NCBI GenBank assembly: GCA_944388665.1
Contig: CALXJQ010000003.1
Span: forward strand, 1 to 47,095
Length of the DNA stretch: 47,095 nt
DNA from: an uncultured Clostridia bacterium
GTDB lineage: Bacteria; Bacillota; Clostridia; TANB77; CAG-508
Direction of reading: 5' to 3'
Part shown: one piece after another, positions 9,783 to 44,742 of the stretch
How positions within the stretch are numbered: position 1 is the first letter of the stretch
How the letters are laid out: each line of letters starts with the position of its first letter
Program-made: the position numbers and the translations under genes
Notes under the pieces: generated by a model
Database searches by the model: none
Told to the model about the DNA's origin: nothing
The model's input: only the letters and a program-made list of their open reading frames with translations

Positions 9783-11171
9783 TTATATCAAGAAATCAAA
9801 AAAATTGCAAGAGTTTAGACTTCTTTCGGCAAGTTTCGTATATCTTAATTTCTTATCTTTAATTTTTTCGCCACCTAATTCTGGTAATATACCAAAATTA
9901 GCATTCATTGGCTGAAATTTTTCATTAGGCGTAGAAATATACTTTGCAAGTGCTCCAATTACAGTTTCTTCTGGAAATATAATTTTTTTGTCATCATTAT
10001 TGTTATTTTGATTTTTCATAAAGTCATTACATGCATTTAAAGCAGCAACCATTCCAGACGAAATTGATTCTACATATCCTTCAACACCTGATATTTGCCC
10101 AGCAAAATATATATTTCTATTTTTTTTCAAGTTATAAGTAGCATCAAGTAGTTTAGGTGAATTTATATAAGTATTTCTATGCATAACACCATACTTAACG
10201 AACTCCGCTTCTTTCAACCCTGGAATCATACTAAATACTCTTTTTTGCTCTCCATATTTAAGGTTTGTCTGAAATCCCACAATATTGTAAATAGTACCTT
10301 CTGTGTTATCTTGCCTCAATTGCACAACCGCATAAGGCCTCTTGCCTGTTCTTGGGTCATCAAAGCCAACCGGTTTTAGGGGTCCAAACCTCAATGTATC
10401 AATTCCTCTTTTTGCCATTATTTCAATTGGCATACAGCCTTCAAAAATTTCCCTTTTCTCAAATTCATGTAAAGTCACAACTTCTGCATTTACCAATTCT
10501 TGCCAAAACTTTTCATATTCCTCTTTATTCATCGGTAAATTAATATAATCACTTTTAGTATCTTTTTGTCTTAATTGCCATTCATCTACCGTTTCATCTT
10601 TCTTCTTTTCTTGGCCATATCTATCCCCATAAAAAGCAATATCAAAATCTATGCTATCCTTAGCAACAATTGGCGCTGCTGCATCATAAAAATATAGCTT
10701 ATCTTCACCTGTCATCTTGCGAATCTGTTCAGCAAGGCCTTCAGATGTCAGCGGTCCTGTTGCAATTATCACGATTCCATCTTTCGCCATTTCTGAAACA
10801 TCAGTCACCTCTTCATGCACAACTTCTATTAACTTATTAGATTCAATCCTTTTTGTAACCGCTTCAGAGAACTTCTCTCTATCAACCGCCAGTGCCTGTC
10901 CAGCTGGCACACTTGTCTCAGAAGCAATCTCCATAAGTAAAGACCCTAGTCTTCTTAGCTCTTCTTTTAGTAAGCCGCACGCATTAGTCAACAAATTTGA
11001 CTTAAAAGAATTACTGCACACAATCTCTGCCAATTTGTCACTATTATGCGCAGGTGAATATTTAAACGGTTTCATTTCATATAGCCTTACCATAATTCCT
11101 CTTTTAGCAATTTGATATGCTGCTTCAGTTCCTGCTAGTCCTCCTCCAACCACAGTTATATAATTAACCAT
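9783..11171 (-). CDS. trmFO: tRNA (uracil-54) methyltransferase TrmFO (Gid)
   Basis: [13 protein letters not shown]-binding motif, [25 protein letters not shown]; second ATG chosen by spacing from AGGAG. Confidence 0.96.
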
Positions 11172-11187
11172 ATTCATCTCTCCTTTT

Positions 11188-11214
11188 GAACTTTAAGGAA
11201 CGTCCCCAAAGTTC
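11188..11214. repeat. REP-like palindrome class A
   Basis: GAACTTTAAGGAACGTCCCCAAAGTTC; 7 near-identical copies in the window. Confidence 0.95.
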
Positions 11215-11220
11215 AATCTA

Positions 11221-19418: not shown

Positions 19419-19440
19419 TAGCTAAAACTTATAATTTTTT

Positions 19441-19500
19441 GAACTTTGGGGACGTTCCTTAAAGTTCAAGGTGTTTTTTTCCTCCGTCCCCAAAAACATC
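19441..19500. repeat. REP-like composite, class A (19441-19467) + class B (19470-19500)
   Basis: GAACTTTGGGGACGTTCCTTAAAGTTC-aa-GGTGTTTTTTTCCTCCGTCCCCAAAAACATC. Confidence 0.95.
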
Positions 19501-19515
19501 TCTCGTGGCAATTTT

Positions 19516-20037
19516 TTATAGTTCGTACATAACTACCTTATGTTCTTTTAATGATTTTTGAACGTCAATTATCCTTTGATTGCTTGAGCCTCTAAATCTA
19601 AGTTTTATGTCTTTTTTGTCCTCTTCAAATTTTCCATCGACCATCACATCTATGTATGACAATAGCTCTGGCGTTTCTTTCCATTCGTTGTACATTTTCC
19701 CCATTACATCCTTGTCAAATTCATAACCTGTATAGCACCATATATTTTTGTCTGGAAATTTTTCTTTTACTTTTTTTACTAATGGCAATATGCCTTGTTG
19801 ATTTACATGCTCTAGTGGTTCACCACCAAGTAATGTTAATCCTGCAACATAAGGGTGGTCTAGTTCGTTCATAATCCTTTCTTCTTCTTTTTCTGTAAAT
19901 TTATTTCCATAGTTAAAGTCCCACGCTTCGCTATTAAAGCAATCTTTGCAATGGTGATGGCATCCACTTACAAATAATGAAACTCTAACTCCTAGTCCAT
20001 TTGCTACATCTGCTTTTTTTATGTCTGCATAGTTCAT
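19516..20037 (-). CDS. nrdG: Anaerobic ribonucleotide reductase activating enzyme
   Basis: NGLGVRVSLFVSGCHHHCKDCFN radical-SAM CxxxCxxC motif; GGEPL; FRGSSNQR. Confidence 0.95.
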   Translation of the reverse strand: MNYADIKKADVANGLGVRVSLFVSGCHHHCKDCFNSEAWDFNYGNKFTEKEEERIMNELDHPYVAGLTLLGGEPLEHVNQQGILPLVKKVKEKFPDKNIWCYTGYEFDKDVMGKMYNEWKETPELLSYIDVMVDGKFEEDKKDIKLRFRGSSNQRIIDVQKSLKEHKVVMYEL

Positions 20038-20116
20038 TTGTATCACATTCCTTATTTATTATATAATATTTAGGTTTTTTTATATGGGATTTACCTATAA
20101 ACCTTTTATTTTTGCT

Positions 20117-22373: not shown

Positions 22374-22567
22374 GATAATTCCTCCTCCAAGTTTTGTTAT
22401 TACATAGATTTCTATTTCTCGCCTATATCTTTTTGATATTCGCCGACTTTCAAAATTCTATATCAAATTCATATAGATTTTATAACACATTCATTTTTCT
22501 TTTTCAATACCTTTTTATATTAATTTTTCTTTACAAATAAGGCACTTGCAAGAAATTTATTACGGAT

Positions 22568-23704
22568 TTACAGCATTGAGGTAAAAAAAATTTTTTTGTC
22601 CTTTACCAAAATTTTTATATTTTTATTTGGAGTCAAATACTTATTTCCAATATTATTTTTACATAACCTTATAATATCCTCCACATTTATTAGACCAATT
22701 GAGTCACTACTACCAATTATATTTGTTATAGTATATAATATAATCCTTGATTTTATTACATTTTTTTGAAGATTAAATTCTTTTAAGTCTAATACAATTT
22801 CTTTTATTTTTTCATCATTTATAGGATCCTTAATTACCCTCAAAAGCATATTTCCGTAGGCTTCTCTCACTTGTTCATCAATATAATTTTGCTCATCACT
22901 AGCCAACTTCGAAAGCCTATCAAAAGTATCAATAATATTTGGGTTAAACTCTTTTTTAATATATGGAATAACTATATTTCGTATCTTATTTCTAGTATAC
23001 TCATTCTCAAAATTAGTTTTATCAATCCTTGGGTTCAAACCATGCTCTTCACAATATCTCTCAATCTCCTGCCTATCACATTCAATCAAAGGCCTAATAT
23101 ATTTGCCTCTCTTAGGTTCAATACCTATCAATCCATTAACTCCACAACCTCTAAACAAATGCATAATTATCGTTTCAACCTTATCATTCTTATTATGTGC
23201 AATAGCAATCTTATTCGCGCCAGTCTCCTTCAAAACCTCATCAAAAAATTCATATCTTGCTTTTCTTCCTGCTTCTTCCACTCCTATCTTCTTATTATTA
23301 GCCAAACTCATCACATCTATGCTTTTCGCATAAAACTTTATGCCATTTTTCTCGCAATACTCCTTAACATACTGCTCATCATCCTTTGCTTCTTCCCTAA
23401 TAAGGTGATTTACGTGAGCCACCACCAAAAAATTTGCCAAGAGGGACGTAGCGTTTTGGCAATTTTTTGCCACTGGGGACGTACCTTTTTGGCAATTTTT
23501 TGCCATTTTGCTACGTCCCTCTTGGCAATTTGTGAAAATAAAATTGTTTTCTTTTTGAAGCTTTAATAAAATGTCCAGCATGCACATTGAATCTGGACCA
23601 CCTGAAACTCCAAGTACAATTTTATCTCCTGGATTTATTAAGTTAAACTTTCTAATAGTATTAGCAACTTTATCTTTTAATGTTATTTTTTGGCAATCAT
23701 GCAT
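22568..23704 (-). CDS. tilS: tRNA(Ile)-lysidine synthetase carrying an in-frame REP-derived insertion
   Basis: SGGPDS PP-loop, AHVNH, ARY, AHNKNDKVET, RPL, RNKIR; upstream of ftsH; start is ATG 23704 or GTG 23713. Confidence 0.95.
   Translation of the reverse strand: MHDCQKITLKDKVANTIRKFNLINPGDKIVLGVSGGPDSMCMLDILLKLQKENNFIFTNCQEGRSKMAKNCQKGTSPVAKNCQNATSLLANFLVVAHVNHLIREEAKDDEQYVKEYCEKNGIKFYAKSIDVMSLANNKKIGVEEAGRKARYEFFDEVLKETGANKIAIAHNKNDKVETIIMHLFRGCGVNGLIGIEPKRGKYIRPLIECDRQEIERYCEEHGLNPRIDKTNFENEYTRNKIRNIVIPYIKKEFNPNIIDTFDRLSKLASDEQNYIDEQVREAYGNMLLRVIKDPINDEKIKEIVLDLKEFNLQKNVIKSRIILYTITNIIGSSDSIGLINVEDIIRLCKNNIGNKYLTPNKNIKILVKDKKIFFTSML
23430..23531. repeat. REP-like class C trimer inside tilS
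   Basis: Three TTGCCA...TGGCAA hairpins at a 33-bp period, each with a GGGACGT core (third one inverted). Confidence 0.95.
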
Positions 23705-23709
23705 AACTA

Positions 23710-24106
23710 TCACCCTTTCTTATCTAATTGCCTCAAAGTTTCTCTGCTTACACCTATTACACTTTCTATTTCTCTATATGAAACACCATAAGTAACTTTC
23801 AATGTATGCACTACTTCTTTTAGTTTTTCTCTGTTTCCCCTTTTTGAAGCTAAAATAGGCGAAATTCCTTGTTCATTCAATTTGTCAATAATTAAATTTC
23901 TGTTATCAGCTTTTTTATCAGTCTTCTCCTCCAAAAATGCGAATTCATTATTTTCTTCTGCATCGCACTCTTTCAAATTGGCACCTTCTATGATTCGTCC
24001 AACACTTTGGTATAATCTTGTTCTATCCGCTCCATACATTTTGGTAAAACTAGAATATTAGATGAAAAAATAGGGATATATTATTGTTTCTTGCTCTTCT
24101 TGTAAT
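23710..24106 (-). pseudogene. Internally deleted REP-associated tyrosine transposase (RAYT/TnpA-REP, Y1 HUH family) remnant
   Basis: Frame 24106-24050 reads ITRRARNNNISLFFHLIF* (like the RAYT N-terminus M.R.AR...FFH). A different frame from 24057 reads YSSFTKMYG... ending in an HTH-like GVSYREIESVIGVSRETL. The HUH and catalytic Tyr/NPV segment is absent. Class C repeats lie on both sides. Confidence 0.7.
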
Positions 24107-24347: not shown

Positions 24348-24420
24348 AAAAATTTGCCAAGAGGGACGTAGCTTAATGGCAAAAAATTGCCAAAAAGCTA
24401 CGTCCCTGGTGGCAAATTTT
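24348..24420. repeat. REP-like class C inverted doublet
   Basis: TTTGCCAAGAGGGACGTAGCTTAATGGCAAA + TTGCCAAAAAGCTACGTCCCTGGTGGCAAA. Confidence 0.93.
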
Positions 24421-24440: not shown

Positions 24441-24618
24441 ATAGCTGTATTTCTATTAAATTTATGCAATGACGAATGCGATTGGAGTGGTTGTAGCCAT
24501 TCTTGATATTAAATAAATGAGGGCGCGCTTCGCGAGAGGCTCGTTTGTTTAATATTTAGAATGGCTAAACCACGCATTGAGCCGAGGAATGAATAAATTT
24601 AATAGAAATATCAGCTAT
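24441..24618 (+). other. 178-nt rod-like hairpin with a central bubble (palindromic element or structured ncRNA)
   Basis: Outer stem ATAGCTG-TATTTCTATTAAATTTAT / ATAAATTTAATAGAAATA-TCAGCTAT; inner stem of about 33 bp, TGGTTGTAGCCATTCT...AAATGAG / CTCGTTT...AGAATGGCTAAACCA. Confidence 0.8.
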
Positions 24619-24639
24619 TATTATAGTAGTAATAGATAA

Positions 24640-24712
24640 AAATTTTGCCATCAAGGGCGTTCATCTTGGGCAAAGCCTTGACAAAAATGAGATGTCTCTG
24701 CTGGCAAAATTT
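24640..24712. repeat. Degenerate class C doublet
   Basis: AAATTTTGCCA...TGGCAAAATTT outer arms with decayed cores (AGGGCGTT, GATGTCTC). Confidence 0.7.
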
Positions 24713-24718
24713 AAAAAT

Positions 24719-24795
24719 GAACTTTAAGGAACGTCCCCAAAGTTCACGAAGAATGTTTTTGAGATGTTTTTTTCCTCCGTCCCCAAAAACACCTC
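24719..24795. repeat. REP-like class A (24719-24745) + class B (24761-24795)
   Basis: GAACTTTAAGGAACGTCCCCAAAGTTC and GAGATGTTTTTTTCCTCCGTCCCCAAAAACACCTC. Confidence 0.95.
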
Positions 24796-24803
24796 ACGGA
24801 TTT

Positions 24804-26138
24804 TTAGTCATCGAATCGTTTTTCGAGGTTTACAAATTTTGTATAGCTTCCAAGCCACAATAGTTCTACTGTGCCAGTTGAGCCACCTCTATGCTTTGCT
24901 AATATAACTTCTGCTATATCCTTTTTTTCACTATCTGGGTTGTAGTAATCATCTCTATACAGAAACATTACAATGTCTGCATCTTGCTCTATGGCGCCAG
25001 ATTCACGTAAGTCTGAAAGCATTGGTCTGTGGTCTGGTCTTTGCTCTACGGCTCTTGACAGCTGTGATACTGCAATTACAGGGACGTTAATTTCTTTGGC
25101 CAATATTTTTAATGACCTACTAATTTCTGAAATTTCTTGTTCACGGCTACCATTTCTTCTATTCGTTCCTTGTATTAATTGCAAATAGTCGATTATAACC
25201 ATACCAATATTTTTTTCAAGTTTCAATTTTCTACATTTAGCGCGGATTTCTGTTACTGAAATTCCTGGCGTATCATCAATGTATATTTCTGACTCTGAAA
25301 GAGGTCCTATTGCTGAAGCGAGCTTAGCCCAGTCGCCTTCTTCTAGTTTTCCTGTTCTCACTTTGTTGCTATCGACCATTGCTTCACTACACAAAATTCT
25401 GTTTACAAGTTGCTCTTTTGACATTTCCAAGCTAAAAATTGCCACAGGCACTTTGGCTCTAACTGCGGCATTTGTAGCAATGTTCAATGCAAAAGCTGTT
25501 TTTCCCATAGCAGGTCTGGCAGCTACCAGTATTAAATCTGATGGATGAAATCCCGCTGTTTTATAATCTAATTCAGTAAATCCTGTTGGAACGCCAGTAA
25601 TATACTGCTTACGATTATATAATTCCTCTAGCTTGGTAAAACTATCAACCAAAACATCCTTTATCGGAGCATATCCCTTCTGATCTTTATCCTGCATTAT
25701 GTTAAAAATTTTCTTTTCAGAGCTTTCCATAATTTCATCAACATCTTCTGTTGGGTCATATCCCAATTCGATAATTTCATTTGCAGTTTTTATCAAATTT
25801 CTTAATGTTGATTTTTCTTTAACAATCTTAATATATTTTGATGCATTAGCCGTAGTTGGCACTTTATCTGGCAACGAAACTATGTACTCCAAGCCACCAA
25901 CTTGTTCGAATTTTCCCATTGACTCTAATTCAGCTTTAACAGTTATTATATCTATCGGTTCTGCTCTATTATACAAATTGTATATTGCTGAATATATAAT
26001 TCTATTATCTTCGCGATAAAAATCTTCTTCTTTTAGGACTTCAATCGCTGAAGTTACAGCATCTTTATCTGTAAGCATACTACCTATTATTGCTTGTTCT
26101 GCTTCAGTATCATGTGGCGGTACTTTTCCTAGCTCCAT
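24804..26138 (-). CDS. dnaB: Replicative DNA helicase (DnaB; DnaC in Bacillus nomenclature)
   Basis: PPHDTEAEQA, AARPAMGKT, IDYLQL, SQLSR, DLRESGAIEQDAD. Confidence 0.98.
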   Translation of the reverse strand: MELGKVPPHDTEAEQAIIGSMLTDKDAVTSAIEVLKEEDFYREDNRIIYSAIYNLYNRAEPIDIITVKAELESMGKFEQVGGLEYIVSLPDKVPTTANASKYIKIVKEKSTLRNLIKTANEIIELGYDPTEDVDEIMESSEKKIFNIMQDKDQKGYAPIKDVLVDSFTKLEELYNRKQYITGVPTGFTELDYKTAGFHPSDLILVAARPAMGKTAFALNIATNAAVRAKVPVAIFSLEMSKEQLVNRILCSEAMVDSNKVRTGKLEEGDWAKLASAIGPLSESEIYIDDTPGISVTEIRAKCRKLKLEKNIGMVIIDYLQLIQGTNRRNGSREQEISEISRSLKILAKEINVPVIAVSQLSRAVEQRPDHRPMLSDLRESGAIEQDADIVMFLYRDDYYNPDSEKKDIAEVILAKHRGGSTGTVELLWLGSYTKFVNLEKRFDD

Positions 26139-26174
26139 CGATTCATTCCCCCTAACTATAAAATTACTCGGTAA

Positions 26175-26621
26175 TTACTCAGCTACAACATTCACTTTTA
26201 ATTTACTTGTGATGCCTTCGAATAATTTTATTTCTACTATATGTACTCCCAATGTCTTTATCGTTTCTTTTACATCAATCTTTTTCTTATCTATTTTTAT
26301 ATTATACTGTTTTTCTAGGTTTTGAGCTATTTCTTTACTTGAAACACCCCCAAAAATCTTTCCATTTTCACCTGCTTTTACAGGTATTTTCAAAGAAATT
26401 TGTGATAACTTTTTAGCTATTTCTCCTGCATTTTCCTTTTCCTGCTCTTTCTGAAATTTAGCAGAATTCAACTTCAATTCCAATTCAGACATATTTCCCT
26501 TGTCCGCAGCAACCGCCAATCCCTTTGGTAGCAGAAAATTGCGTGCATAACCATCAGAAGCATTAATAATTTGATTCTTTTTTCCTACACCTTTGATATC
26601 TGCTTTTAAAATTACTTTCAT
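26175..26621 (-). CDS. rplI: 50S ribosomal protein L9
   Basis: MKVILKADIKGVGK, GYARNFLLPKG, GKIFGGV. Confidence 0.98.
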   Translation of the reverse strand: MKVILKADIKGVGKKNQIINASDGYARNFLLPKGLAVAADKGNMSELELKLNSAKFQKEQEKENAGEIAKKLSQISLKIPVKAGENGKIFGGVSSKEIAQNLEKQYNIKIDKKKIDVKETIKTLGVHIVEIKLFEGITSKLKVNVVAE

Positions 26622-26644: not shown

Positions 26645-26680
26645 GCCATTAGGTGAACTTTAAGGGGGCCCCCAATGGCA
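26645..26680. repeat. Degenerate chimeric REP (class C arms around a class A half)
   Basis: TGCCATT-aggTGAACTTTAAGGgggcccc-c-AATGGCA. Confidence 0.7.
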
Positions 26681-26685
26681 CATTT

Positions 26686-28701: not shown

Positions 28702-28741
28702 AAATTTTCTTCTCCTTATTTTTATTATAATATACCATTAT

Positions 28742-28770
28742 ATTTTACTCGGAAAAGGCAGATTTGTCAA
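28742..28770 (-). promoter_or_regulatory. Sigma-A promoter of gdpP-rplI-dnaB
   Basis: TTGACA-17 bp-TAAAAT on the minus strand. Confidence 0.7.
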
Positions 28771-28783
28771 GGCTTTGAAGGCC

Positions 28784-29047
28784 TTATGTGTTATCATTAT
28801 CTAATTTATCCACCGTCTCTTTATATATATCATCTATGTTTTGCGTATTTGAATTATATTCTTGTTGAATTATCTCTATTTGCTTATCTTGCTCAATTGC
28901 TTCTGACCTTATTCTAAATAGCCACGTAGTTAAAACTACAACAAAAAATAGCATAACTACTGTAACAAATAAAGTTGCAGAGCCATTTTCTGAGCTTATT
29001 TTTTTTAATATTCTTCTAAGCATAATTTTATCCTTCTTTCTTTTCAA
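28784..29047 (-). CDS. Small single-transmembrane protein, prepilin-like N-terminus
   Basis: Basic leader, then ENG/SATLFVTVVMLFFVVVL hydrophobic helix; true start may be the ATG of MLRRILKK. Confidence 0.65.
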   Translation of the reverse strand: MKRKKDKIMLRRILKKISSENGSATLFVTVVMLFFVVVLTTWLFRIRSEAIEQDKQIEIIQQEYNSNTQNIDDIYKETVDKLDNDNT

Positions 29048-29140
29048 CTATCAATCATTATTGTTTTCATTATAACAAATACTATTATGCTTTTCAAGAA
29101 ATTTTTAATTTTTTACAATTCATGCTTATATGATCATAAT

Positions 29141-29176
29141 AAAAAGCACCATAACTTTTACATTATGGCACTTTTT
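29141..29176 (-). terminator. Intrinsic terminator after rpoC
   Basis: Minus-strand AAAAAGTGCCATAA / TTATGGTGCTTTTT. Confidence 0.8.
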
Positions 29177-29179
29177 GTT

Positions 29180-32100
29180 TTATTCTTTTTCAGTATTTGC
29201 TGACTCGTCTGCCTTACCTGATTCTTCTGTGCTCAAGTTTTCTGCTGACTCACTTTCTACTCTATCTGTATCTTGTACAGGTGTCTCTTCACTTTTTGCA
29301 TTCTCCTCAACTGTAGCATTTTCAGTTTCTTCAGTAGTTGATGTTTTTGTTGGCATTGTTGTATTTATCTGAATCTCTTGGTACTTCTTCATTCCAGTAC
29401 CTGCAGGGATTAATTTTCCTATAATTACATTTTCTTTTAATCCAACTAAATCATCTGTTTTACCTTTGATTGCCGCATCTGTAAGTACTCTTGTTGTCTC
29501 TTGGAATGATGCAGCTGACAAGAAGCTATCTGTTGCAAGTGATGCTTTTGTTATTCCTAGCAACACACGTTTTCCTGTTGCTGGGCGTTTTCCTTGTGCT
29601 ACTGCTTCTTCATTTTTATCAGCAAATTCATACATATCAATCAATGAACCTGGGAACATATCTGTATCACCATTATCATCAATTCTAACTTTTTTAAGCA
29701 TTTGTCTACCAATAACTTCTATGTGTTTATCATTTATATCAACACCTTGATTTCTATATACTTTTTGAACTTCTGATATCAAATACTCATATACCCCTTC
29801 TGGTCCTTTTACTGCCAATATATCACTTGGATTTATTGAACCTTCTATTAGAGGATCTCCTGCTTCTACAATGTCTCCATCTTTTACTTTCATCTTAGAG
29901 CCAAATGGTATTGTATATGTTTTTGAGTCATCTTTTGATGTTACTACTACTTCTTTCTTCTTCTTTGTTTCTTTTATTTTTACTTTACCAGCAATTTCGG
30001 TAATTATAGCAACACCCTTTGGTTTTCTAGCTTCAAATAGCTCTTCAACTCTAGGAAGACCTTGTGTAATATCTGCTACACCTGCAACACCACCAGAGTG
30101 AATAGTTCTCATAGTAAGCTGTGTACCTGGCTCACCGATTGATTGTGCAGCAATTATTCCTATTGCTTCTCCTATTGATACTAAGTCTCTTCTTGCTAAG
30201 CCCATTCCATAACATTTCTGGCATACGCCATGTTTTGAATGACATCCTAAAACTGAACGTACTTCTAGCTTTTCAATTCCTGCATCAACAATTTCTTCAG
30301 CAATTTTTTCTGTAATCATTGTATTTGTATCAACAATTAGTTTATTAGTCTTTGGATTGTATACGTCCTTTGTTACAAACCTTCCTAATAATCTTTCTTG
30401 CATTTTTTCAATTACTTGATTTCCATCTTTTATGTCATATACCATTATTCCTTCTGTTGTACCACAATCGTGCTCTCTAACAATTATATCTTGAGAAACA
30501 TCAACTAATCTTCTTGTTAGATATCCAGAGTCAGCTGTTCTTAAGGCTGTATCTGAAAGTCCTTTACGAGCACCATGTGCTGAAATAAAGTATTCCAAAG
30601 CATCTAGTCCTTCTGCGAAAGATGACTTAATTGGTATTTCAACTGCCTTACCAGTGGTACTAGCCATCAATCCACGCATACCAGCAATTTGCCTTAATTG
30701 GTTCATATTACCACGGGCTCCAGATTTTACCATCATGTATATTGGGTTCAATTCATCGAAGTTTGCTTCCATTGCATCACTAACTTCTTGAGTTGTATCT
30801 TCCCAAATTTTTATTACAGCTTTATATCTTTCATCATCAGTAATTAAACCACGAAGATATTGTTTTCTTACATTTTCTACTTTTTCATCAGCTTTAGCTA
30901 AAATTTCTTTTTTGCTATCTGGAACTTTAACATCATCCATTGAGAATGTAATTCCTGCTAAAGTTGAATATTTGAATCCTAAAGCTTTTATATAATCTAT
31001 AACTTCTGCAGATTCTGTTAGTCCATGTGTTCTTATAACTTTTTCAATTATTGTTCCCATTGATTTTTTCATAACTGGGAAGTCAATTTCATATTGGAAT
31101 GGATCTTTTTTTCTATCAATAAATCCTAAGTCCTGAGGAATTCCTTGATTAAAGATAATTCTTCCAACACTTGTTTCAATTTTTTTAGATTGCTCTTTGC
31201 CATTAATTTCCTTTGTTATTCTTACGAATATTTTTGCATGTATATCTACATCATGATTTTCAAAAGCCATTATAGCTTCATCAGGGTCTTTAAAATATTT
31301 TCCTTCACCTTTTTCGCCATCTAATGTCATTGTTAAATAATAGCTTCCCAAAATCATATCTAGTCTAGGTGTAGCAACTGGCTTACCATCTTGTGGTTTT
31401 AACAAGTTGTTTGTAGATAACATTAAATATCTTGATTCTGCTTGTGCTTCTAAAGATAGTGGTAAGTGAACTGCCATTTGGTCACCATCGAAATCGGCAT
31501 TGAATGCTTCACAAACTAATGGGTGAAGTTTTATTGCTCTTCCTTCTACTAGTACTGGCTCAAAGCTTTGAATTCCTAGTCTGTGTAGTGTTGGGGCACG
31601 GTTTAACATTACAGGATGATCTTTTATAACATCCTCCAAAACTTCCCATACCTCTGGCTTCAATCTTTCTACCATTCTTTTTGCACTTTTTATGTTTTGT
31701 GCAATATTTCTTGCTACTAGTTCTTTCATTACAAATGGCTTGAATAATTCAACTGCCATCTCTTTTGGTAAACCACATTGATATATTTTTAGCTCTGGTC
31801 CAACTACAATAACTGAACGTCCAGAATAGTCAACACGTTTACCTAACAAGTTTTGACGGAAACGTCCTTGTTTTCCCTTTAACATATCAGACAATGATTT
31901 TAATGGTCTATTACCTGCGCCTGTTACTGGCCTACCTCTTCTTCCATTGTCTATCAATGCATCAACAGACTCTTGAAGCATTCTTTTTTCATTTCTAACA
32001 ATTATTTCTGGTGCTCCTAATTCTAGCAATCTTTTTAAACGATTGTTTCTGTTTATTACTCTTCTATACAAATCATTCAAGTCTGATGTTGCAAATCTAC

Positions 32101-35800: not shown

Positions 35801-36632
35801 GGTTAAATTTATATCTTCCGACTTTTGCCAAATCATATCTTCTATTATCAAAAAACAAGCCATTAAACAAATTTTTGGCAGCATCTGCAGTTGGCAATTC
35901 TCCTGGTCTTAATTTTTTATAAATTTCTATTAAAGCCTCATCCTGATCTTTAATTGGGTCTTTTGCAATTGTAGCATTTATTAGCTCCTCATCACCAAAT
36001 AACTCTTTTATTTGATTATCAGTTATTACACCAATAGCCCTCAACAATGTAGTTACAGGAACTTTTCTTGTTCTATCAACACGAACCCAGAAAATATCAT
36101 TTCCATCTGTTTCATATTCAAGCCAAGCACCACGAAGTGGCATTACTGTTGATGTGTAAGTCTTTTTTCCAGTTTTTGTATCAAATTCTTCTGCATAGTA
36201 GCATCCAGGTGAACGAACTAACTGGCTTACAACAACCCTTTCCGCACCATTTATTATGAATGTACCACTATCAGTCATCAATGGAAAATCTCCCAAATAA
36301 ATCTCTTGCTCTTTAATTTCTCCTGTTTCACGGTTAATCAACCTAACTTTTACATGTAACCTTGTTGAATAAGTAGCATCTCTTTCCTTAGCTTCTTCTA
36401 AGGTATATTTAGTTTTGTCCTCCATGTAGTAATCGAAAAATTCAAGAACTAAATTTCCAGAATAATCTTCAATTGGCGAAATATCTCTTAAAACTTCTCC
36501 TAATCCCTCTTTTACGAACCAATCATAAGAATCCTTCTGTACTTGAATCAAATTTGGCATCTCAATATAGTCGCCAACCTTTGCGAAATCTTTACGAGAA
36601 GCTTTCTCGTACTTAACTTCTTTAATTTTCAA
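32874..36632 (-). CDS. rpoB: RNA polymerase beta subunit
   Basis: [44 protein letters not shown]; TTG start after AAAGGAG. Confidence 0.99.
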
Positions 36633-36842
36633 AAAAAACCACTCCTTTAAAAAAATTAAGCAGATTTGAAATATAAAAAAACAATTGTTAAAAGAAGTCC
36701 TTCTTGTCTACAATTCATCAACTACTTACATCAGCCTACCTGCTCCTGTATGCCAATATCCGTAGCAACTCCTCATATCCAATTCCTCTTCTTTTACTTT
36801 TACTTTTGAATATAAGTTTTAATTTGCATAAAAATATATAAT

Positions 36843-36872
36843 ATAATATCACACTTGTCCTAATAAAGTCAA
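36843..36872 (-). promoter_or_regulatory. Probable sigma-A promoter of rpoBC
   Basis: TTGACT-18 bp-TATTAT with a TGn extension. Confidence 0.55.
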
Positions 36873-36893
36873 GTATTTTTCAAAAATTTTTTT

Positions 36894-36926
36894 AGGTGTT
36901 TTTGGGGACGGAGGAAAAAAACATCT
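36894..36926. repeat. REP-like class B
   Basis: AGGTGTTTTTGGGGACGGAGGAAAAAAACATCT. Confidence 0.95.
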
Positions 36927-37188
36927 TGAATTCTCGGTTCATTATCCTCATCAAGAACTTCTAAATCAATTTTGTGGCTCCCTTCCAAAAACAAGTTTTT
37001 GAACTCTTTCCACAAAATTGATAAAGAAGTTCTAAGTGAGTCTAATTCACATTCGAACATATTCCTAAAATAATTACATATATCATCAATAAAATTCTTA
37101 TAAATAGAAAAAACGGTGAGCTTTAAAGAACATTTCAAAAGTTTATTTTTTATTAATAATAGCAAAGATAATATGATAAATAATTTTT

Positions 37189-37215
37189 GAACTTTAAAGA
37201 ACGTCCCCAAAGTTC
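37189..37215. repeat. REP-like class A
   Basis: GAACTTTAAAGAACGTCCCCAAAGTTC. Confidence 0.93.
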
Positions 37216-37264
37216 ACTAAAAAAATATGCTCTAAATGCTGAAAAATAAAGGAAAAATGAAGAT

Positions 37265-37291
37265 GAACTTTAAGGAACGTCCCTAAAGTTC
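37265..37291. repeat. REP-like class A overlapping the stop codon of the AI-2E gene
   Basis: GAACTTTAAGGAACGTCCCTAAAGTTC. Confidence 0.93.
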
Positions 37292-38411
37292 ATTTTTTTG
37301 AAAGTTTATATTCAACGTAATCTTCGACTAGTATTTTTATAACTGCAATTGCTGGAACTGCCAAAAACATGCCAAGTATGCCAAAGTATGCACCGCCAAC
37401 TGTTACAGCAAAGATTACTAATAGTGGGCTTATTTTTAATGATTGGCCAATTATTTTTGGATTGATTATGTTTGCATCTATTTGTTGCAAAATTATTACT
37501 ACAATAATCATCCAAATTGTTTTGCTTAATCCACCTGTAATTAATGTGATAATTGCAGCTATTACGCACGCTATAATTGCGCCGAAATATGGAATCATGT
37601 TAAATATTCCTATTAAAAATCCTAGTAATGGAGCATATTTAACTTGCATTATTGTCAATGCGATTGTTACCAAAATGCCTACTATTACTGCATCTAAAAA
37701 CTGACTAGCTATAAATTTGAAAAATATTTCATTTGAATTGTCAAAGTACTTGTCTAAATTTTTATATGTTCTTTCTTTGAAAAGTGCCTCTGACAATCTT
37801 TTTAAGAATCTTATTATTTTTGATCTTTCTGCTAATATGTATACAGAAACAACAACTGCAACAAATATATCAAATAGACTTGTAACAGCTGATATTGCAT
37901 TTTCAATATATGACAATACCTTATCTACTTGGAAATATTGCTTAATATCTATCCCCTGTATGCTTTTTATGGCATCATTGACTATGTCTCCTTTTAGCCA
38001 AGAATTTTCTGGTAAATCGTTATATTTTTGTATTGCTAGTTCAAAATAGTGTTGAATGTTATTAACTAGGTCTGTTATACTTTCAGCCACAACAGGTATG
38101 ATAAAGTTCATCAAAATTAGTATTATTAAAAATATTATTAAATAAACAGCAAAAATTCCAAGGGCCCTAGCTCTTTTTGAGATAAATTTTAATTTACATT
38201 TTTTGAAGGCTCCTTCAAATTTTCTACATGGCAAATATAGCAAATATGCTATAAACACTCCTGAAAAGAATGGTGCCATTATTTCAAAGAACTTAGTCAC
38301 CACGTTTTTCACACCACTAAAGTCCCCTAGTGCTTTATATACAACTATTACAGCTACAGCTAGTACAAACCAATATAGCCACTTTTTCCAATGACTTTTT
38401 ATTTCACTCAT
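37290..38411 (-). CDS. AI-2E family (PerM-like) transporter
   Basis: Multiple transmembrane helices; NMIPYFGA, QQIDANIINPKIIG, GILGMFLAVP. Confidence 0.92.
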   Translation of the reverse strand: MSEIKSHWKKWLYWFVLAVAVIVVYKALGDFSGVKNVVTKFFEIMAPFFSGVFIAYLLYLPCRKFEGAFKKCKLKFISKRARALGIFAVYLIIFLIILILMNFIIPVVAESITDLVNNIQHYFELAIQKYNDLPENSWLKGDIVNDAIKSIQGIDIKQYFQVDKVLSYIENAISAVTSLFDIFVAVVVSVYILAERSKIIRFLKRLSEALFKERTYKNLDKYFDNSNEIFFKFIASQFLDAVIVGILVTIALTIMQVKYAPLLGFLIGIFNMIPYFGAIIACVIAAIITLITGGLSKTIWMIIVVIILQQIDANIINPKIIGQSLKISPLLVIFAVTVGGAYFGILGMFLAVPAIAVIKILVEDYVEYKLSKK

Positions 38412-38424
38412 CAGATTTCCCCCT

Positions 38425-39180: not shown

Positions 39181-39200
39181 TTTATTTTCTCTCCTTTTCT

Positions 39201-39300
39201 GAACTTTGGGGACGTTCCTTTTTGGCACAAAAAAGATGTTTTTTTCCTCCGTCCCCAAAAACACCCAAAAAATGAACTTTAAGGAACGTCCCTAAAGTTC
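39201..39300. repeat. REP cluster: A/C chimera (39201-39227), class B (39234-39264), class A (39274-39300)
   Basis: GAACTTTGGGGACGTTCCTTTTTGGCA; AGATGTTTTTTTCCTCCGTCCCCAAAAACAC; GAACTTTAAGGAACGTCCCTAAAGTTC. Confidence 0.93.
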
Positions 39301-39313
39301 ATTTGTGCACATT

Positions 39314-40261: not shown

Positions 40262-40297
40262 AATAAATTTATTACCTCCTTTTTTGGCAACAATTAA

Positions 40298-40609: not shown

Positions 40610-41161
40610 ATGGGTTGGATTATACTTGCAATTGTTGTAATTGTTGTTATTGCTGTCATTGCAATGTACAATAGTTTAGTTCAAAGTAAAATTAAAGTTG
40701 ACAATGCATGGAGCCAAATTGATGTTCAATTGCAAAGAAGATTTGATTTGATTCCTAACTTCGTAGAAACTGTTAAAGGTTATATGACACATGAAAAATC
40801 AACATTTGAAAAAATTGCAGAACTTAGAACTTCATGGGCTAACAGCCAAACTGTAGCAGAAAAAGCTTCTATTGATAATCAATTATCAGATGCTTTAAAA
40901 ACAATTATGGCTGTATCTGAAGGTTATCCTGAGTTAAAAGCTAATCAAAACTTTTCAGAGCTATCTGAAGAATTAAGAAATACAGAAAATAAAATTTCTT
41001 TTGCTAGACAATTTTACAATGATACTGTAACTGCTTACAACACAAAATTAGAAGTATTTCCTTCTAACATAATTGCTGGAATTTTTAAATTTAAACCACG
41101 TGATTTGTTTGAAGCAGAAAATGACGAAGCTAGAAAAAATGTAAAAGTAAATTTTAATTAG
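40610..41161 (+). CDS. lemA: LemA family protein
   Basis: YNSLV, AWSQIDVQLQRRFDLIPN, YPELKAN, FPSNIIA; ATG 40610 after GGAGG. Confidence 0.95.
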   Translation: MGWIILAIVVIVVIAVIAMYNSLVQSKIKVDNAWSQIDVQLQRRFDLIPNFVETVKGYMTHEKSTFEKIAELRTSWANSQTVAEKASIDNQLSDALKTIMAVSEGYPELKANQNFSELSEELRNTENKISFARQFYNDTVTAYNTKLEVFPSNIIAGIFKFKPRDLFEAENDEARKNVKVNFN

Positions 41162-41175
41162 AGATTGGAGTAAAA

Positions 41176-42081
41176 ATGTTTAAAAGTATCAAGAAAAACA
41201 AAATAGAGTCTGGCGTTATTGTTGGAATTTTTATTCTTGTCATCACATTAATCGTATATTTTATATGTAATGCATTAAATTTAGGATATCTTTCAATAGT
41301 AATTGCTTTAATAATCTCTATAGCATCAGCTTGGGGCTCTTACTATTATAGTGACAGAATTGTTCTTTCTATGAGCAATGCCAGACCTGCTACTAAAGAA
41401 GAGGATCAAAAATTAGTAAATATTTTAGACGCTTTGATGCTAGCTGCCGGCTTACCATCAAAGCCTAGATTATACGTTGTAGATGACCCTCAGCCTAATG
41501 CTTTTGCTACTGGAAGGAATCCTCAAAATGCTGTAATATGCGTCACAACTGGCTTACTTGAAAAACTAGATTATTACGAGCTTGAAGGAGTTATTGCACA
41601 TGAAATGAGCCACATTAGAAACTATGATATTTTGCTTAGTTGTGTAGTGTCTGTGATGGTCGGTTTTATAGTAATGTTAGCAGACATGTTTTCTAGGCTA
41701 CTTTTCTGGGGTGGACTAAGTGACAATGATAATGACCGTGGCAATGGAAATGTTATTTTAATGTTAATAGGTCTAGTTTGTTTGATTCTTTCTCCGATAT
41801 TTGGTACACTTATGCAACTTGCACTTTCAAGGAAAAGAGAATTTTTAGCTGACAGCACTGCCGTAGAATTTACCCGTAATCCAGAGGGACTAATTTCAGC
41901 ATTAGAAAAGCTCGAGGCAGACCCTAATCAATTGGCTACCGCTAACAGCGCTACAGCCAACATGTACATCGTCAGTCCATTCAAAAGCAACACCAAAGAA
42001 GGTAAGAAAAAGCGTTCCAGCATCTGGTCTACGCACCCAAGCACCGAAGCCAGAATTGAAGCTTTACGAAAACTAGAATGA
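41176..42081 (+). CDS. htpX: Zinc metalloprotease HtpX (M48)
   Basis: PNAFATGRNP, HEMSH, SRKREFLAD, STHP; follows lemA. Confidence 0.95.
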   Translation: MFKSIKKNKIESGVIVGIFILVITLIVYFICNALNLGYLSIVIALIISIASAWGSYYYSDRIVLSMSNARPATKEEDQKLVNILDALMLAAGLPSKPRLYVVDDPQPNAFATGRNPQNAVICVTTGLLEKLDYYELEGVIAHEMSHIRNYDILLSCVVSVMVGFIVMLADMFSRLLFWGGLSDNDNDRGNGNVILMLIGLVCLILSPIFGTLMQLALSRKREFLADSTAVEFTRNPEGLISALEKLEADPNQLATANSATANMYIVSPFKSNTKEGKKKRSSIWSTHPSTEARIEALRKLE

Positions 42082-42175
42082 ACTTGATGTTTGAGGGATG
42101 TTTTTGGGGACGGTGTTTTTGGGGACGGAGGAAAAAAACATCTTTGTTGCCATCAGGGACGTACCTTTTTGGCAA
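42079..42175. repeat. REP cluster: class A stub, duplicated partial B, class B (42112-42142), class C (42147-42175)
   Basis: TGAACTT; GATGTTTTTGGGGAC; GGTGTTTTTGGGGACGGAGGAAAAAAACATC; TTGCCATCAGGGACGTACCTTTTTGGCAA. Confidence 0.93.
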
Positions 42176-42203
42176 TTTTTGTATTGATGGGAAGTTATGA
42201 AAA

Positions 42204-42590
42204 ATGAAGATACTTTGTGGAACAGATATTATTGAAATCAATCGTGTAAAAGATAGCATTAAGCAAGTAGGCGATAGATTTTTGCAAAAAGTGTACACTA
42301 AAAATGAAATTGAATATTGCGAAAGTAAAAAAGTCCAGAAATATCAGCACTATGCTGCTAGATTCGCCGCAAAAGAAGCAACGTTCAAGGCTATTTCTGG
42401 GCTAATTTCTAAATATGATATTTCTTGGAATGATATAGAAGTACTGAATGATGAAAATGGCAGACCTTACTTAAATTTGCTTGGGAAGGCAAAGGGAAAA
42501 ATTATACCTAAAATTAATAGTATAGATATTACAATTTCTCACTGCAAAGAATATGCTGTTGCAAATGTAGTGATATTATTAAATGACTAG
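42204..42590 (+). CDS. acpS: Holo-ACP synthase
   Basis: GTDIIEINR, AARFAAKEA, GRP, ITISH. Confidence 0.95.
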   Translation: MKILCGTDIIEINRVKDSIKQVGDRFLQKVYTKNEIEYCESKKVQKYQHYAARFAAKEATFKAISGLISKYDISWNDIEVLNDENGRPYLNLLGKAKGKIIPKINSIDITISHCKEYAVANVVILLND

Positions 42591-42649
42591 CATTAGTTTT
42601 AGTGCTAATAGTATAGTGCAATAATATTATTTATTTTGGAGGCGGAAAA

Positions 42650-43447
42650 ATGGAATTTTTTGATAGTCACGCTCATTTGGATGATGCAAAGTTCGATTCA
42701 GATAGAGAAAAATTAATTGATGAAATTTATAAATCTGGCGTTACAAAGCTAGTATCAGCAGGATACAGCTTAGAAGGGTCCAAAAAAGGCGTCGAGCTCG
42801 CCAATAAATATGATTTTATTTATACAACAAGTGGCATTTCCCCAAATGATGTTCCAGAGGGCGACGATTTTCCACAATTAGAGAACAATTTGTGGAAAAC
42901 TTTAACAAAAATAAAAGATTTAGCAAAACAAAATTCTAAAGTTGTTGCTATAGGAGAAATTGGCTTAGATTATTATTGGAATAAAGAAAATAAAGACTTA
43001 CAAAAGCTGGCTTTTACAGCCCAAATTGACATCGCAAATGAACTAAATTTGCCAATTGTAATACACACTAGGGAAGCTGTGATGGACACGCTTCAGATTC
43101 TGAAAGAACACCCTGTAAATCAAAAAGGAGTATTTCACTGTTGCCCTTTAAACAGAGAATTAGTAAAAGAGGCCCTAAAGCTAGACTTTTTCATTTCTTT
43201 TGCTGGCCCAGTGACATTCAAAAATTCAAAAAATGCCAATGAAATCGTTAATCTAGTGCCACTAGACCACATTTTAATTGAAACAGATAGTCCTTACCTA
43301 TCCCCTGAACCATTAAGAGGCAGAAGAAATGACTCAAGAAATGTAAAATATATTGCACAAAAAATCGCAGACTTTAGAGGAATTTCCTTAGAAAAAGTGG
43401 CACAAATAACATATCAAAATGCGAAAAAAATATTTAAAATTTCTTAA
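42650..43447 (+). CDS. tatD: TatD family nuclease
   Basis: DSHAHL, GEIGLDY, IHTREA, FHC, ETDSPYL. Confidence 0.95.
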   Translation: MEFFDSHAHLDDAKFDSDREKLIDEIYKSGVTKLVSAGYSLEGSKKGVELANKYDFIYTTSGISPNDVPEGDDFPQLENNLWKTLTKIKDLAKQNSKVVAIGEIGLDYYWNKENKDLQKLAFTAQIDIANELNLPIVIHTREAVMDTLQILKEHPVNQKGVFHCCPLNRELVKEALKLDFFISFAGPVTFKNSKNANEIVNLVPLDHILIETDSPYLSPEPLRGRRNDSRNVKYIAQKIADFRGISLEKVAQITYQNAKKIFKIS

Positions 43448-43449
43448 AC

Positions 43450-43510
43450 GAACTTTGGGGACGTTCCCCAAAGTTCAAGATGCTTTTTTCCTCCGTCCCC
43501 AAAAACACCT
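43450..43510. repeat. REP-like composite A (43450-43476) + B (43478-43510) between convergent genes
   Basis: GAACTTTGGGGACGTTCCCCAAAGTTC-a-AGATGCTTTTTTCCTCCGTCCCCAAAAACACCT. Confidence 0.95.
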
Positions 43511-44742
43511 TATTTTTTAGCGAGCAATATGAAGTTTAGTATGTTTACTATTAATGAAATAATTAATATTACTGCTATTAAAATGGTAACTGTATGGTCT
43601 TTTTCAATGTTTAGTTCTTTGTAAAGGGTGTCATATTTGGCTTTGGCTTCGTTATAGAGTTTTTCTAGCTCGAAGGTTTCTTGGAGCTTGTGGTTTAGGA
43701 TGGTGCCGATTTCGTCTTCGGTTATTTCTTGTATCCACAAGTTTTTGGTGAAGTCGATGAATTTTCTGCGGGCTTTTTTTATTTTTTTTATGTTCTGGAA
43801 GTCTGCGCTGAGTTTTTTTAGATATATTTTTTTGTATAAGTTTAATATATATAAGTAGAAATATTGGTTTTCGAATTCTTCTGGTAATTTAGTGTAGTTG
43901 TTGCTGTCGCAGTTTGAGCTGAATAGCATTACGCCAAGCTTAGAGATGCCAAGTTTTGCATAGTTCCATTTTGAAAAACTTTGTATTTTGTCAAAGTCTA
44001 TTTTTCTAGTATCATCTGATGGCAAGACACTAGCATACTTTGAAAAGTAGTCTTTTACGTTATCAAAGCCTATAGTGTTATTCCAATATTGCTGATCTAT
44101 GCAAGCATAAGAATATGTAAGAAATCTTTCGGTGTCTATGTCAAGCTTAGAGGCTTCGGTATTAGAGCCAGTGATATTATGTATGAATTCTTGAAAGTCC
44201 TCTATGCTTTCGAAGCTATCTGTTTGGATTTTTATGTTATCGTTACTGTTTTGTCTTTCAAATTTGTTGTTTATGTCTCTAAATTTGTAGTTGAAGTCAA
44301 GTATATTAGCAAAGTTGTCCGCATCTTCTACATTTGTTTTTATTGCTAAAAAGCATATTCCTGTGTTAAAACAGATTATTTCTATTTTTTGAATTGTAAA
44401 AAATATGCCTGTACGGTTTCCAACTTTACCTTGTATATCCTGTTTTAGTTGATATTCAAATATATTGCATGGATATTTGCTAAGGATTGCTGCTCTAGTT
44501 TCTAATGGAAGATCTTCTAATTTTTTTAATTTTGCACTGCTAAATGTGAAACTTGAAAATAATATTTCTCTAGCTTTAGGCAAGAAATAGTTGCATATAT
44601 TAAGGTCCTGCCCTTTTTTAAAGATTTTCAATTGACATTTAGGATCTTTTAGTATTTTTAGTATATATTTTTGATATTTTCCATCTTTTATAACAAATGG
44701 ATATATAAAATACGTATACTGATAATTTGTCTTTAGTTCCAT
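43510..44742 (-). CDS. Hypothetical protein with C-terminal transmembrane helix
   Basis: 410 aa ORF, GGAAAGGG RBS, hydrophobic C-terminus; no family confidently recognised. Confidence 0.8.
   Translation of the reverse strand: MELKTNYQYTYFIYPFVIKDGKYQKYILKILKDPKCQLKIFKKGQDLNICNYFLPKAREILFSSFTFSSAKLKKLEDLPLETRAAILSKYPCNIFEYQLKQDIQGKVGNRTGIFFTIQKIEIICFNTGICFLAIKTNVEDADNFANILDFNYKFRDINNKFERQNSNDNIKIQTDSFESIEDFQEFIHNITGSNTEASKLDIDTERFLTYSYACIDQQYWNNTIGFDNVKDYFSKYASVLPSDDTRKIDFDKIQSFSKWNYAKLGISKLGVMLFSSNCDSNNYTKLPEEFENQYFYLYILNLYKKIYLKKLSADFQNIKKIKKARRKFIDFTKNLWIQEITEDEIGTILNHKLQETFELEKLYNEAKAKYDTLYKELNIEKDHTVTILIAVILIISLIVNILNFILLAKK

Follow-up and report, generated by a model that had tools for sequence, protein, structure and literature searches.

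The 47,095-nt stretch of DNA analysed here (the window, contig C3 of the genome of an uncultured Clostridia bacterium) carries hairpin-forming repeats of the repetitive extragenic palindromic (REP) type between ordinary housekeeping genes, and it raises the question of whether such repeats change how the genes beside them mutate. An initial annotation had claimed that, on the plus strand, DNA to the left of each REP is enriched in C and DNA to the right of it in G. Genome-wide, this pattern was confirmed at third codon positions for genes in both orientations. The resulting compositional halo is mutational and anchored at the REPs, and it does not arise from amino-acid composition, codon usage or gene content.

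The halo at silent sites

The source genome (G000) comprises 1.41 Mb (1,405,889 bp) in 97 contigs, with ~30% G+C and 98% completeness. Its REP sites are hairpins of 27-31 nt, every one of which contains GGGACG; this hexamer and its complement CGTCCC occur at 204 + 201 = 405 sites, against ~34.5 expected per strand (~69 in total). A stem of at least 5 nt is formed at 319 of the 401 GGGACG sites examined, leaving 82 without one. When units were called as GGGACG hairpins with a stem of at least 6 nt, 304 units were obtained, grouped into 194 clusters (100 single, 79 double, 14 triple and 1 quadruple), and only 6 of the units lie within called open reading frames (ORFs), the rest being outside. 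Three stem families share one common core: family A, TGAACTTT..GGGACG..AAAGTTCA; family B, GGTGTTTTT..AAAAACACC (written GTGTTTTT..GGGACGGAGG..AAAAACAC for the window unit at 19439-19498); and family C, TTGCCA..GGGACGTA..TGGCAA. The constant block is GGGACG within the hairpin, and the sequence 5' of the stems varies. Relative to genes that end at a REP, the GGGACG motif is in sense orientation in 169 cases and in antisense orientation in 119 across the genome.

The eight hand counts per 120 nt that had accompanied the original claim proved exact on recount (C 36 against 19 in tilS and 34 against 16 in htpX; G 30 against 10 in gdpP and 32 against 15 in the ORF at 43510). Over all bases the genome-wide signal is small, with inward C at ~0.18 between 60 and 800 bp and ~0.16 beyond 1.2 kb; the hand-picked windows are thus among the strongest and overstate the typical raw signal, and the analysis was therefore carried out by codon position. 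Herein, inward denotes the strand read 5'->3' towards the nearest REP, and outward the one with its 5' end at the REP. ORFs were taken longest-first from stop to stop, with 22 trimmed and 10 dropped at REP overlaps, and genes shorter than 300 nt were excluded (600 nt in the gene-end test).

At third codon positions (315,447 sites in total), a distance-dependent skew was found on the inward strand. The ratio C/(C+T) is 0.42 at 50-200 bp from a REP, 0.35-0.37 at 400-600 bp, 0.33 at 600-800 bp, 0.26 at 1-1.25 kb, ~0.20 at 2.5-3 kb and 0.17-0.19 beyond 5 kb. The decay is described by 0.185 + 0.256 × exp(-d/1070 bp), and the gradient is equal whether the coding strand is inward or outward. The fading with distance that had been described is therefore real, but its length of ~1.07 kb exceeds the several hundred base pairs originally claimed. 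The opposite transition pair moves the other way, as inward G/(G+A) drops by ~0.035 near REPs. At 4-fold degenerate sites, the inward frequency of C rises from 0.061 far from REPs to 0.154 near them and that of T falls from 0.456 to 0.324, with A slightly up and G flat.

Gene ends and intergenic flanks that lack REPs show no comparable effect. At the 3' ends of REP-adjacent genes (n=106), C3/(C3+T3) is 0.39-0.45 near the end and 0.27 at 300 codons, whereas it is flat at 0.18-0.20 at REP-free 3' ends (n=601). The polarity flips at the 5' ends of genes next to REPs (n=78), where G3/(G3+A3) reaches 0.34-0.42 compared with 0.18-0.20 in 615 controls, and flanks of REP-free intergenic regions (n=579) are flat, with C/(C+T) of 0.193 near and 0.183 far. 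In a paired test on the 144 flanks free of any further REP for 3 kb, inward C/(C+T) was higher near (0-600 bp) than far (2-3 kb) in 131 of the 144 (Wilcoxon p=2e-23), and inward G/(G+A) was higher near in only 26 of them (0.144 near vs 0.214 far, p=8e-16). In addition, a blind scan for two-sided skew switches placed 30 of its 56 peaks within 150 bp of a called REP and 9 at 150-500 bp; of the 17 further away, at least 3 are degenerate REPs that the unit caller had missed.

The change is almost confined to synonymous sites. Codon position 2 has the same composition near and far from REPs, and the shift at position 1 is mostly the synonymous change of Leu codons from TTR to CTN, with a CTN share of 0.457 near and 0.302 far. 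Amino-acid usage differs near REPs in rare residues only, the largest shifts being a few tens of per cent. The confounding by amino-acid composition against which the initial annotation had cautioned is excluded by the unchanged second codon position, and amino-acid or domain composition as a cause is ruled out by this together with the flat orthologous codons of a congener described below. Assemblies from independent public runs match the REP-flanking stretches with 0 differences (for instance, 24765-26575 and 27695-29767); the strains in these runs are nearly identical and conserved genes of other organisms are mixed into the contigs, which were used only for this assembly check.

The halo is absent at orthologous positions of a REP-free relative. 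The sequence compared comprised parts of three congener genomes, G004 (775 kb), G043 (290 kb plus 8 loci) and G033 (316 kb), and of E. coli (300 kb); G004 lacks these REPs, with GGGACG at 16 sites against 36 expected in 775 kb. For 463 reciprocal-best orthologues of G000 and G004, the comparison was restricted to codons that agree in amino acid and in their first two bases. At these conserved codons, C/(C+T) in G000 is 0.36-0.39 near REPs and 0.18-0.19 far from them, whereas the same codons in G004 are flat at 0.12-0.15 at all distances.

The direction of change was then read by parsimony from 96 gene triples (G000, G043 and G004) holding 17,253 synonymous sites in conserved codons, with near defined as <=800 bp and far as >2.5 kb; values are for the inward strand on the G000 lineage and, in absolute terms, rough. 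The T>C gain on the strand running into the REP, as originally proposed, is borne out: the rate is 268/891 = 0.301 near, 0.187 at 0.8-2.5 kb and 433/3211 = 0.135 far, whereas T>C on the G043 lineage is flat over the three distance classes (0.104, 0.100 and 0.099). G>A is also raised near REPs (21/87 = 0.241 vs 38/254 = 0.150), C>T is lowered (5/78 = 0.064 vs 56/236 = 0.237), A>G is unchanged (0.127 vs 0.123), and A>C shows a minor excess (43/967 near vs 78/3270 far). Read on the outward strand, these changes amount to a gain of G from A and a weaker one of T from C. Altogether, the flat G004 orthologues, the T>C excess on the G000 lineage, the unchanged second codon position and the flat REP-free flanks establish the halo as mutational and REP-anchored. 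The three outcomes that the initial annotation had named as refuting its claim (no distance-dependent skew at synonymous sites, an equal skew in REP-free orthologues, an equal effect at gene ends lacking REPs) were each checked for, and none was seen.

The halo is two-fold symmetric about the REP, irrespective of gene direction. Replication direction was inferred from gene-strand bias (correlation of 0.97 with GC skew), and origin-proximal flanks (0.388, n=101) do not differ from terminus-proximal ones (0.363, n=99; p=0.38), so that the halo is independent of both gene orientation and inferred replication direction. Because of this symmetry, one-directional processes (gene transcription, transcription-coupled repair and the encounter of a fork with a hairpin) are excluded. 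Around single units, both flanks carry a halo, which is somewhat stronger on the 5' side of the GGGACG strand (0.381, n=91) than on its 3' side (0.312, n=59; p=0.001). The effect rises with dose, from 0.356 for 1 unit to 0.380 for 2 and 0.458 for 3. All 16 NRN neighbour contexts are enriched, with odds ratios of 1.6-3.9. The footprint of a motif-specific DNA deaminase was rejected on this absence of strong neighbour-base dependence.

Halos in the window and among relatives

Sequence of the window occurs in 20 public runs from 10 studies, labelled as chicken gut, dust and air metagenomes. Its genes are ordinary housekeeping ones and include a GIDA-family (trmFO-like) gene, an SNF2 helicase, ftsH, tilS, dnaB, rplI, gdpP, rpoB/rpoC, an AI-2E transporter gene, lemA, htpX, acpS and tatD; no Rfam match was obtained anywhere in the window. 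Most of its REPs show a halo, given below as plus-strand third-position ratios in successive bins of 500 bp. From the left, a family-A unit on the minus strand (11186-11216) is preceded by a halo at 10001-11185 within the GIDA-family gene, where C/(C+T) is 0.33 and 0.41 compared with 0.19-0.25 further left. The cluster at 19439-19498 (family A on the plus and family B on the minus strand) has a halo to its right at 19499-20046, with G/(G+A) of 0.38, and its left flank is weak (0.21-0.23).

Three family-C units at 23434-23528 lie in frame in tilS, and the halo to their left (22501-23433) reaches C/(C+T) of 0.31 and then 0.54. In this minus-strand ORF (22568-23713), the triplet sits between the SGGPDS PP-loop and the HVNH block and adds ~33 residues that TilS of G043 and G004 does not have, and it divides the Pfam PP-loop match into two parts.

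Further to the right, a family-C pair (one unit on each strand) is found at 24353-24415, and a pair of families A and B on the minus strand at 24718-24791 is followed by a halo over the 3' end of dnaB (24792-25500; G/(G+A) of 0.42 and 0.36). A degenerate REP-like hairpin in the rplI/gdpP gap (26651-26690), missed by the unit caller and assigned to family D17, is followed by a halo over the 3' part of gdpP (26691-28000), with G/(G+A) of 0.55, 0.36 and 0.31. A plus-strand family-B unit at 36897-36923 has a left halo in the 5' end of rpoB (36001-36896; C/(C+T) of 0.26 and 0.43), and two family-A units on the minus strand at 37188-37292 have one to their right (37293-38000; G/(G+A) of 0.38 and 0.29). 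The latter pair lies downstream of the AI-2E transporter gene, and both units also score as hairpins resembling intrinsic terminators on the minus strand. At 39195-39301, a cluster of a partial family-A unit followed by family-B and family-A units on the minus strand shows a weak or absent halo on both sides (of 39237-39301). The family-B and family-C units at 42107-42175, both on the plus strand, are preceded by a halo left of 42114 in the 3' end of htpX (41501-42113; C/(C+T) of 0.33 and 0.31). Finally, the cluster at 43450-43510 (family A on the plus strand and an imperfect family B on the minus strand) has a halo on its left in the 3' end of tatD (43001-43449; C/(C+T) of 0.37) and on its right, over the 3' end of a 410-aa ORF (43511-44500), the strongest of the window, with G/(G+A) of 0.74 and 0.43.

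Between two REP clusters, in a gene-poor gap of 760 bp upstream of dnaB, a G+C-rich and self-complementary stretch was noted at 24460-24640, for which no Rfam match was found. In public contigs, this stretch varies by small indels and variants (24505-24506 and 24591). De Bruijn contigs from four independent public runs end at REPs, for instance at 24765, 26652, 39255/39275 and 42113/42116, and some connect distant REPs, which is the assembly behaviour expected of repeats.

Among relatives, large numbers of family-A repeats are confined to G000 and G043, with 175 and 51 pattern hits, and any match is seen in 5 of the 61 genus genomes searched; family-B-like repeats match 10 and family-C-like repeats 11 of the 61. 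Besides G000, GGGACG REPs occur in at least G033, G037, G046, G055, G061, G031 and G043. In G043, 38 of 49 REP units are identical, and ~8 of the ~24 testable REP sites are common to G000; the halo there is weak and of the same sign (0.173 within 400 bp vs 0.137 beyond 3 kb). In G033 (50 units in 35 clusters), it is moderate, at ~0.30 between 200 and 800 bp and ~0.22 at 2-10 kb. G004 has an unrelated REP-like family of its own (GTCAA..CGGTGTTTTTYTTGAC; 43 units in 21 clusters), around which no strand-asymmetric halo was found, only a mild symmetric rise in G+C at third codon positions (GC3). The halo thus goes with the GGGACG lineage of REPs, is strongest in G000 and is no general property of REPs. 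As a side observation, 78-bp tandem repeats (C2 ~161100-161700 and C3 ~49400-49600) supply the most frequent 14-mers of the G004 sequence (775 kb).

A difference between these genomes is also seen away from the repeats. At more than 2.5 kb from REPs, the G000 lineage still gains more AT>GC changes than that of G043 (T>C 0.135 vs 0.099; A>G 0.123 vs 0.079), and the baseline GC3 ratio is 0.19 in G000 and 0.125 in G004. This distant excess may be a diffuse legacy of REP turnover.

Mechanism and rival explanations

The preferred reading, to which a probability of about one half is given, is that the halo records, as a footprint built up over time, a strand-polarised mutation process that acts locally and starts at the REP hairpins, with synthesis of the outward strand as part of the scheme. 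A REP hairpin would be repeatedly nicked or otherwise processed, and the most economical candidates for nicking would be two RAYT-like HUH tyrosine enzymes encoded between inverted REPs. The 3'-OH at the REP would be extended outward for ~1 kb, displacing or replacing the outward strand. G.T wobble errors in this patch, with dGTP placed opposite template T or dTTP opposite template G, would on escaping correction give rise to outward A>G and C>T. Either strand could be processed because REPs are palindromic or paired, which would yield a two-sided halo; in skew terms, a REP would behave as a miniature bidirectional origin whose outgoing strand turns G/T-rich. By an equilibrium calculation on the G/(G+A) and C/(C+T) ratios, the added outward rates of A>G and C>T are approximately equal per site, as expected for G.T wobble mispairs in both template configurations, and the minor inward A>C excess fits misinsertion of G on the outward strand. 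Furthermore, the enrichment in all 16 neighbour contexts fits polymerase error better than a motif-specific deaminase.

The enzymes considered for this role are two ORFs of 258 and 276 aa in G000 that match Pfam Y1_Tnp with 44.5 and 40.5 bits (cut-off 23). The best NCBIfam match of both is REP_Tyr_transpos ('REP-associated tyrosine transposase'), at 69 and 65 bits and below its cut-off of 80, whereas IS200 scores 22 and 17 bits. Both translations contain HAH and Y..H.NP, presumably the catalytic motifs. The ORF on contig C5 is flanked by inverted family-B units at 4423(+) and 5462(-), and that on C34 by inverted family-A units at 11041/11117(+) and 12192/12267(-), which corresponds to the classical arrangement of a REPtron. 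In E. coli, according to passages of PMC3333891, TnpAREP cleaves single-stranded REP/BIME (bacterial interspersed mosaic element) DNA and is able to act on either strand of a BIME; it becomes joined to the DNA by a 5'-phosphotyrosine link, which leaves a 3'-OH. The putative trigger suggested by the initial annotation, HUH nicking and resynthesis, is compatible with the geometry and with the two RAYT-like genes between inverted REPs.

The content of repair genes does not set G000 apart from its relatives. A Y-family polymerase and PolA are present in G000 and all four relatives searched and therefore do not discriminate G000. MutL and MutS2 are present in G000, and mutS is cut by a contig end after the N-terminal 438 residues (C27:1-1314), which are 80% identical to MutS of G043; the half with domain V was not found on any G000 contig. 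Loss of mismatch repair in G000 was considered and rejected, the missing domain being an assembly cut at a contig end and MutL being present.

A bolder version of the preferred reading is put forward tentatively and is rather doubtful at present: the GGGACG REPs and RAYT-like enzymes might form hundreds of 'mini-origins' of outward synthesis or displacement tracts of ~1 kb that approximately double synonymous T>C in adjoining genes, with REP turnover raising the G+C of the whole genome. Selfish repeats would on this version be a major source, previously unrecognised, of local heterogeneity in mutation rate and composition in a bacterium.

Several observations weigh against a footprint of REP-initiated synthesis. 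The mechanism is drawn from geometry and spectrum rather than from nicks, 3' ends or repair tracts. The drop of inward C>T near REPs is not predicted by simply added synthesis errors. With synonymous divergence of ~25-30% and multiple hits, the absolute parsimony values are rough, although the near/far contrast within a lineage is robust. G043 and G033 carry near-identical REPs and RAYT-like genes, yet their halos are weak or moderate, and RAYT-like genes are present also in congeners without these REPs; family C shows a halo, and no RAYT partner gene was identified for it. In a 300-kb sample of E. coli K-12, the 17 REP clusters have no halo, with inward C/(C+T) of 0.49-0.51 near and 0.55-0.56 far, the opposite sign if anything. 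If nicking is the trigger, the two-sided halo at single units requires that both strands be processed. In addition, left and right halo strengths of one cluster are uncorrelated (Spearman -0.11, n=106), and perfect-consensus REPs have halos as strong as diverged ones (rho 0.09, p=0.21; 189 flanks); neither age nor a symmetric double-strand break therefore explains the variance in halo strength, and the age of REP copies was rejected as its cause. Finally, Endonuclease V (PF04493) was found in 0 of 5 genus genomes (G000, G043, G033, G004 and G006), while the gene for uracil-DNA glycosylase (UDG) is open in G000 and G004 and its matches in G043 and G033 contain stop codons; with UDG present and Endonuclease V missing, unrepaired deamination of adenine could produce the same A>G excess in G000.

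This last point leads to the best-surviving rival, which shares the start at the REP and is considered unlikely. Here the lesion would be base deamination on a displaced, single-stranded outward strand, with A converted to hypoxanthine and read as G, and C converted to U and read as T. The affected bases agree, outward A strongly and outward C weakly, and the repair-gene content of G000 would leave deaminated A in place and remove U, so that A>G would dominate. Endonuclease V was missing from all five genus genomes searched, however, yet G004 has no halo and G043 almost none; the small outward T>G excess is not a product of deamination; spontaneous deamination of adenine is slow; and the reading presupposes a single-stranded outward strand.

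The drop in C>T is accounted for by one rival alone, which is nevertheless judged improbable. In mismatch repair misdirected by a nick, the nick or 3' end at the REP would mimic the nascent-strand signal, and MutS/MutL would excise ~1 kb of the inward strand, so that errors on the outward strand are fixed and the inward strand is over-corrected. The predicted rises of inward T>C and G>A and the predicted fall of C>T are all seen, MutL and the N-terminal half of MutS are present, and the ~1 kb halo length resembles that of long-patch mismatch-repair tracts. The same process predicts a fall in inward A>G, which is unchanged (0.127 vs 0.123), and it needs a putative nick at the REP and a mutS that is here cut by a contig end. 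Readings based on synthesis errors, deamination and misdirected mismatch repair cannot be separated in silico.

REPs could also act as Chi-like signals or recombination hotspots, breaks elsewhere being resected to the REP and repair synthesis being concentrated on its 5' side. The stronger halo 5' of the GGGACG strand would agree with this, and gradients of Chi activity are, like the halo, of kilobase scale. Such a role is very improbable: GGGACG outside hairpins is not over-represented (82 sites vs ~69 expected), the motif is depleted in G004 (16 vs 36 expected), unit orientation shows no leading-strand bias (109 vs 99), and the halo is clear on the 3' side too.

Slightly less credible still is divergent transcription, or R-loops, starting from REPs and exposing the non-template (outward) strand. 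The geometry would fit, and a similar strand asymmetry at 5' ends is seen downstream of human promoters. A promoter scan of five REP clusters, however, returned 39 sites against 35.1 expected, none of them in a REP; two REPs look like terminators instead; and where two neighbouring genes are co-directional, polarity still reverses at the REP although the direction of transcription stays the same.

The two weakest rivals can be dismissed briefly. The raised GC3 near REPs, and the higher AT>GC of the G000 lineage over G043 even far from them, would fit GC-biased gene conversion or the acquisition of foreign DNA joined at REPs. Conversion should raise both ratios, however, whereas inward C/(C+T) rises and G/(G+A) falls (0.214 -> 0.144), and the signal fades smoothly with distance instead of in steps; GC-biased conversion is excluded by the opposite movement of the two transition pairs within a single strand. 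That no local process exists, and that amino-acid composition, codon-usage selection, gene-end effects or an assembly artefact produce the pattern, is suggested by the hand-picked windows, which also differ in overall G+C and protein domain, and is contradicted by the unchanged position 2, the flat REP-free gene ends and G004 codons for the same amino acids, the reversal of polarity between 3' and 5' gene ends, and the difference-free REP flanks of independent assemblies; it is scarcely tenable.

Relation to known systems

REPs and RAYTs are known; to our knowledge, no kilobase-scale, strand-polarised substitution gradient centred on REPs has been reported, and none was found described in word searches of open-access full texts, which do not prove absence. 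Passages of PMC2817692 report that DNA polymerase I and gyrase bind REPs and that rayt genes evolve faster than their neighbours; the latter would follow naturally if REP flanks are mutagenic.

If the preferred reading of a REP-initiated mutation process is true, bacterial mutation rate and spectrum vary along the chromosome with distance to selfish repeats. The REP/RAYT system would impose a mutational cost on, or generate diversity in, its neighbours, here tilS, dnaB, gdpP, rpoB, htpX and tatD. What RAYTs do biologically has been a question ever since they were discovered, and the footprint would offer a sequence-only readout of REP processing in vivo, its geometry predicting nick positions, tract length and strand. 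Moreover, repeats could produce the local anomalies in GC3 and skew that are used to infer horizontal transfer, expression level and replication origins.

Like the REP/BIME-RAYT REPtrons of Enterobacteria and the REPINs of Pseudomonas, the system of G000 comprises hundreds of imperfect palindromes of 27-31 nt that are mostly intergenic and often paired. Unlike known REPs, it conserves GGGACG within the hairpin and has no conserved 5' GT(A/G)G (GTAG) head. It further differs from known REPtrons in having three stem families on one core, in its RAYT-like proteins, which fall below the NCBIfam RayT cut-off (69 and 65 vs 80 bits), and in its host, a gut Firmicute-like bacterium with a 1.4-Mb genome of 30% G+C. 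The tilS triplet alone recalls the Rickettsia palindromic elements, which insert in frame in genes: here too, a palindromic repeat sits in frame in an essential gene and leaves it unbroken, although repeat family and host are different and G000 offers one verified case.

Comparisons of the halo itself with somatic hypermutation, ColE1 and oriC, like that with Chi above, are analogies. Immunoglobulin somatic hypermutation and mammalian transcription-start asymmetry are likewise forms of local, strand-biased A/T mutagenesis extending 1-2 kb from a fixed start; they depend on transcription, AID or Pol eta, whereas the polarity of the REP halo ignores gene direction. The Pol I mutation footprint downstream of the ColE1 plasmid origin resembles the halo in being a one-directional error tract that starts at a fixed 3'-OH and decays over ~1 kb, and Pol I is among the proteins reported to bind REPs (PMC2817692). 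That footprint belongs to an engineered plasmid system with a mutator polymerase, while the REP halo is natural, chromosomal and two-sided. Finally, replication skew at oriC, where the leading strand is rich in G and T, and the strand-biased transitions recorded in mutation-accumulation lines deficient in mismatch repair resemble the halo in that the outgoing strand gains G from A and T from C, with a switch at the site. In contrast to oriC skew, the halo extends ~1 kb rather than half a chromosome, occurs at ~194 sites rather than one, and is independent of the inferred direction of the fork.

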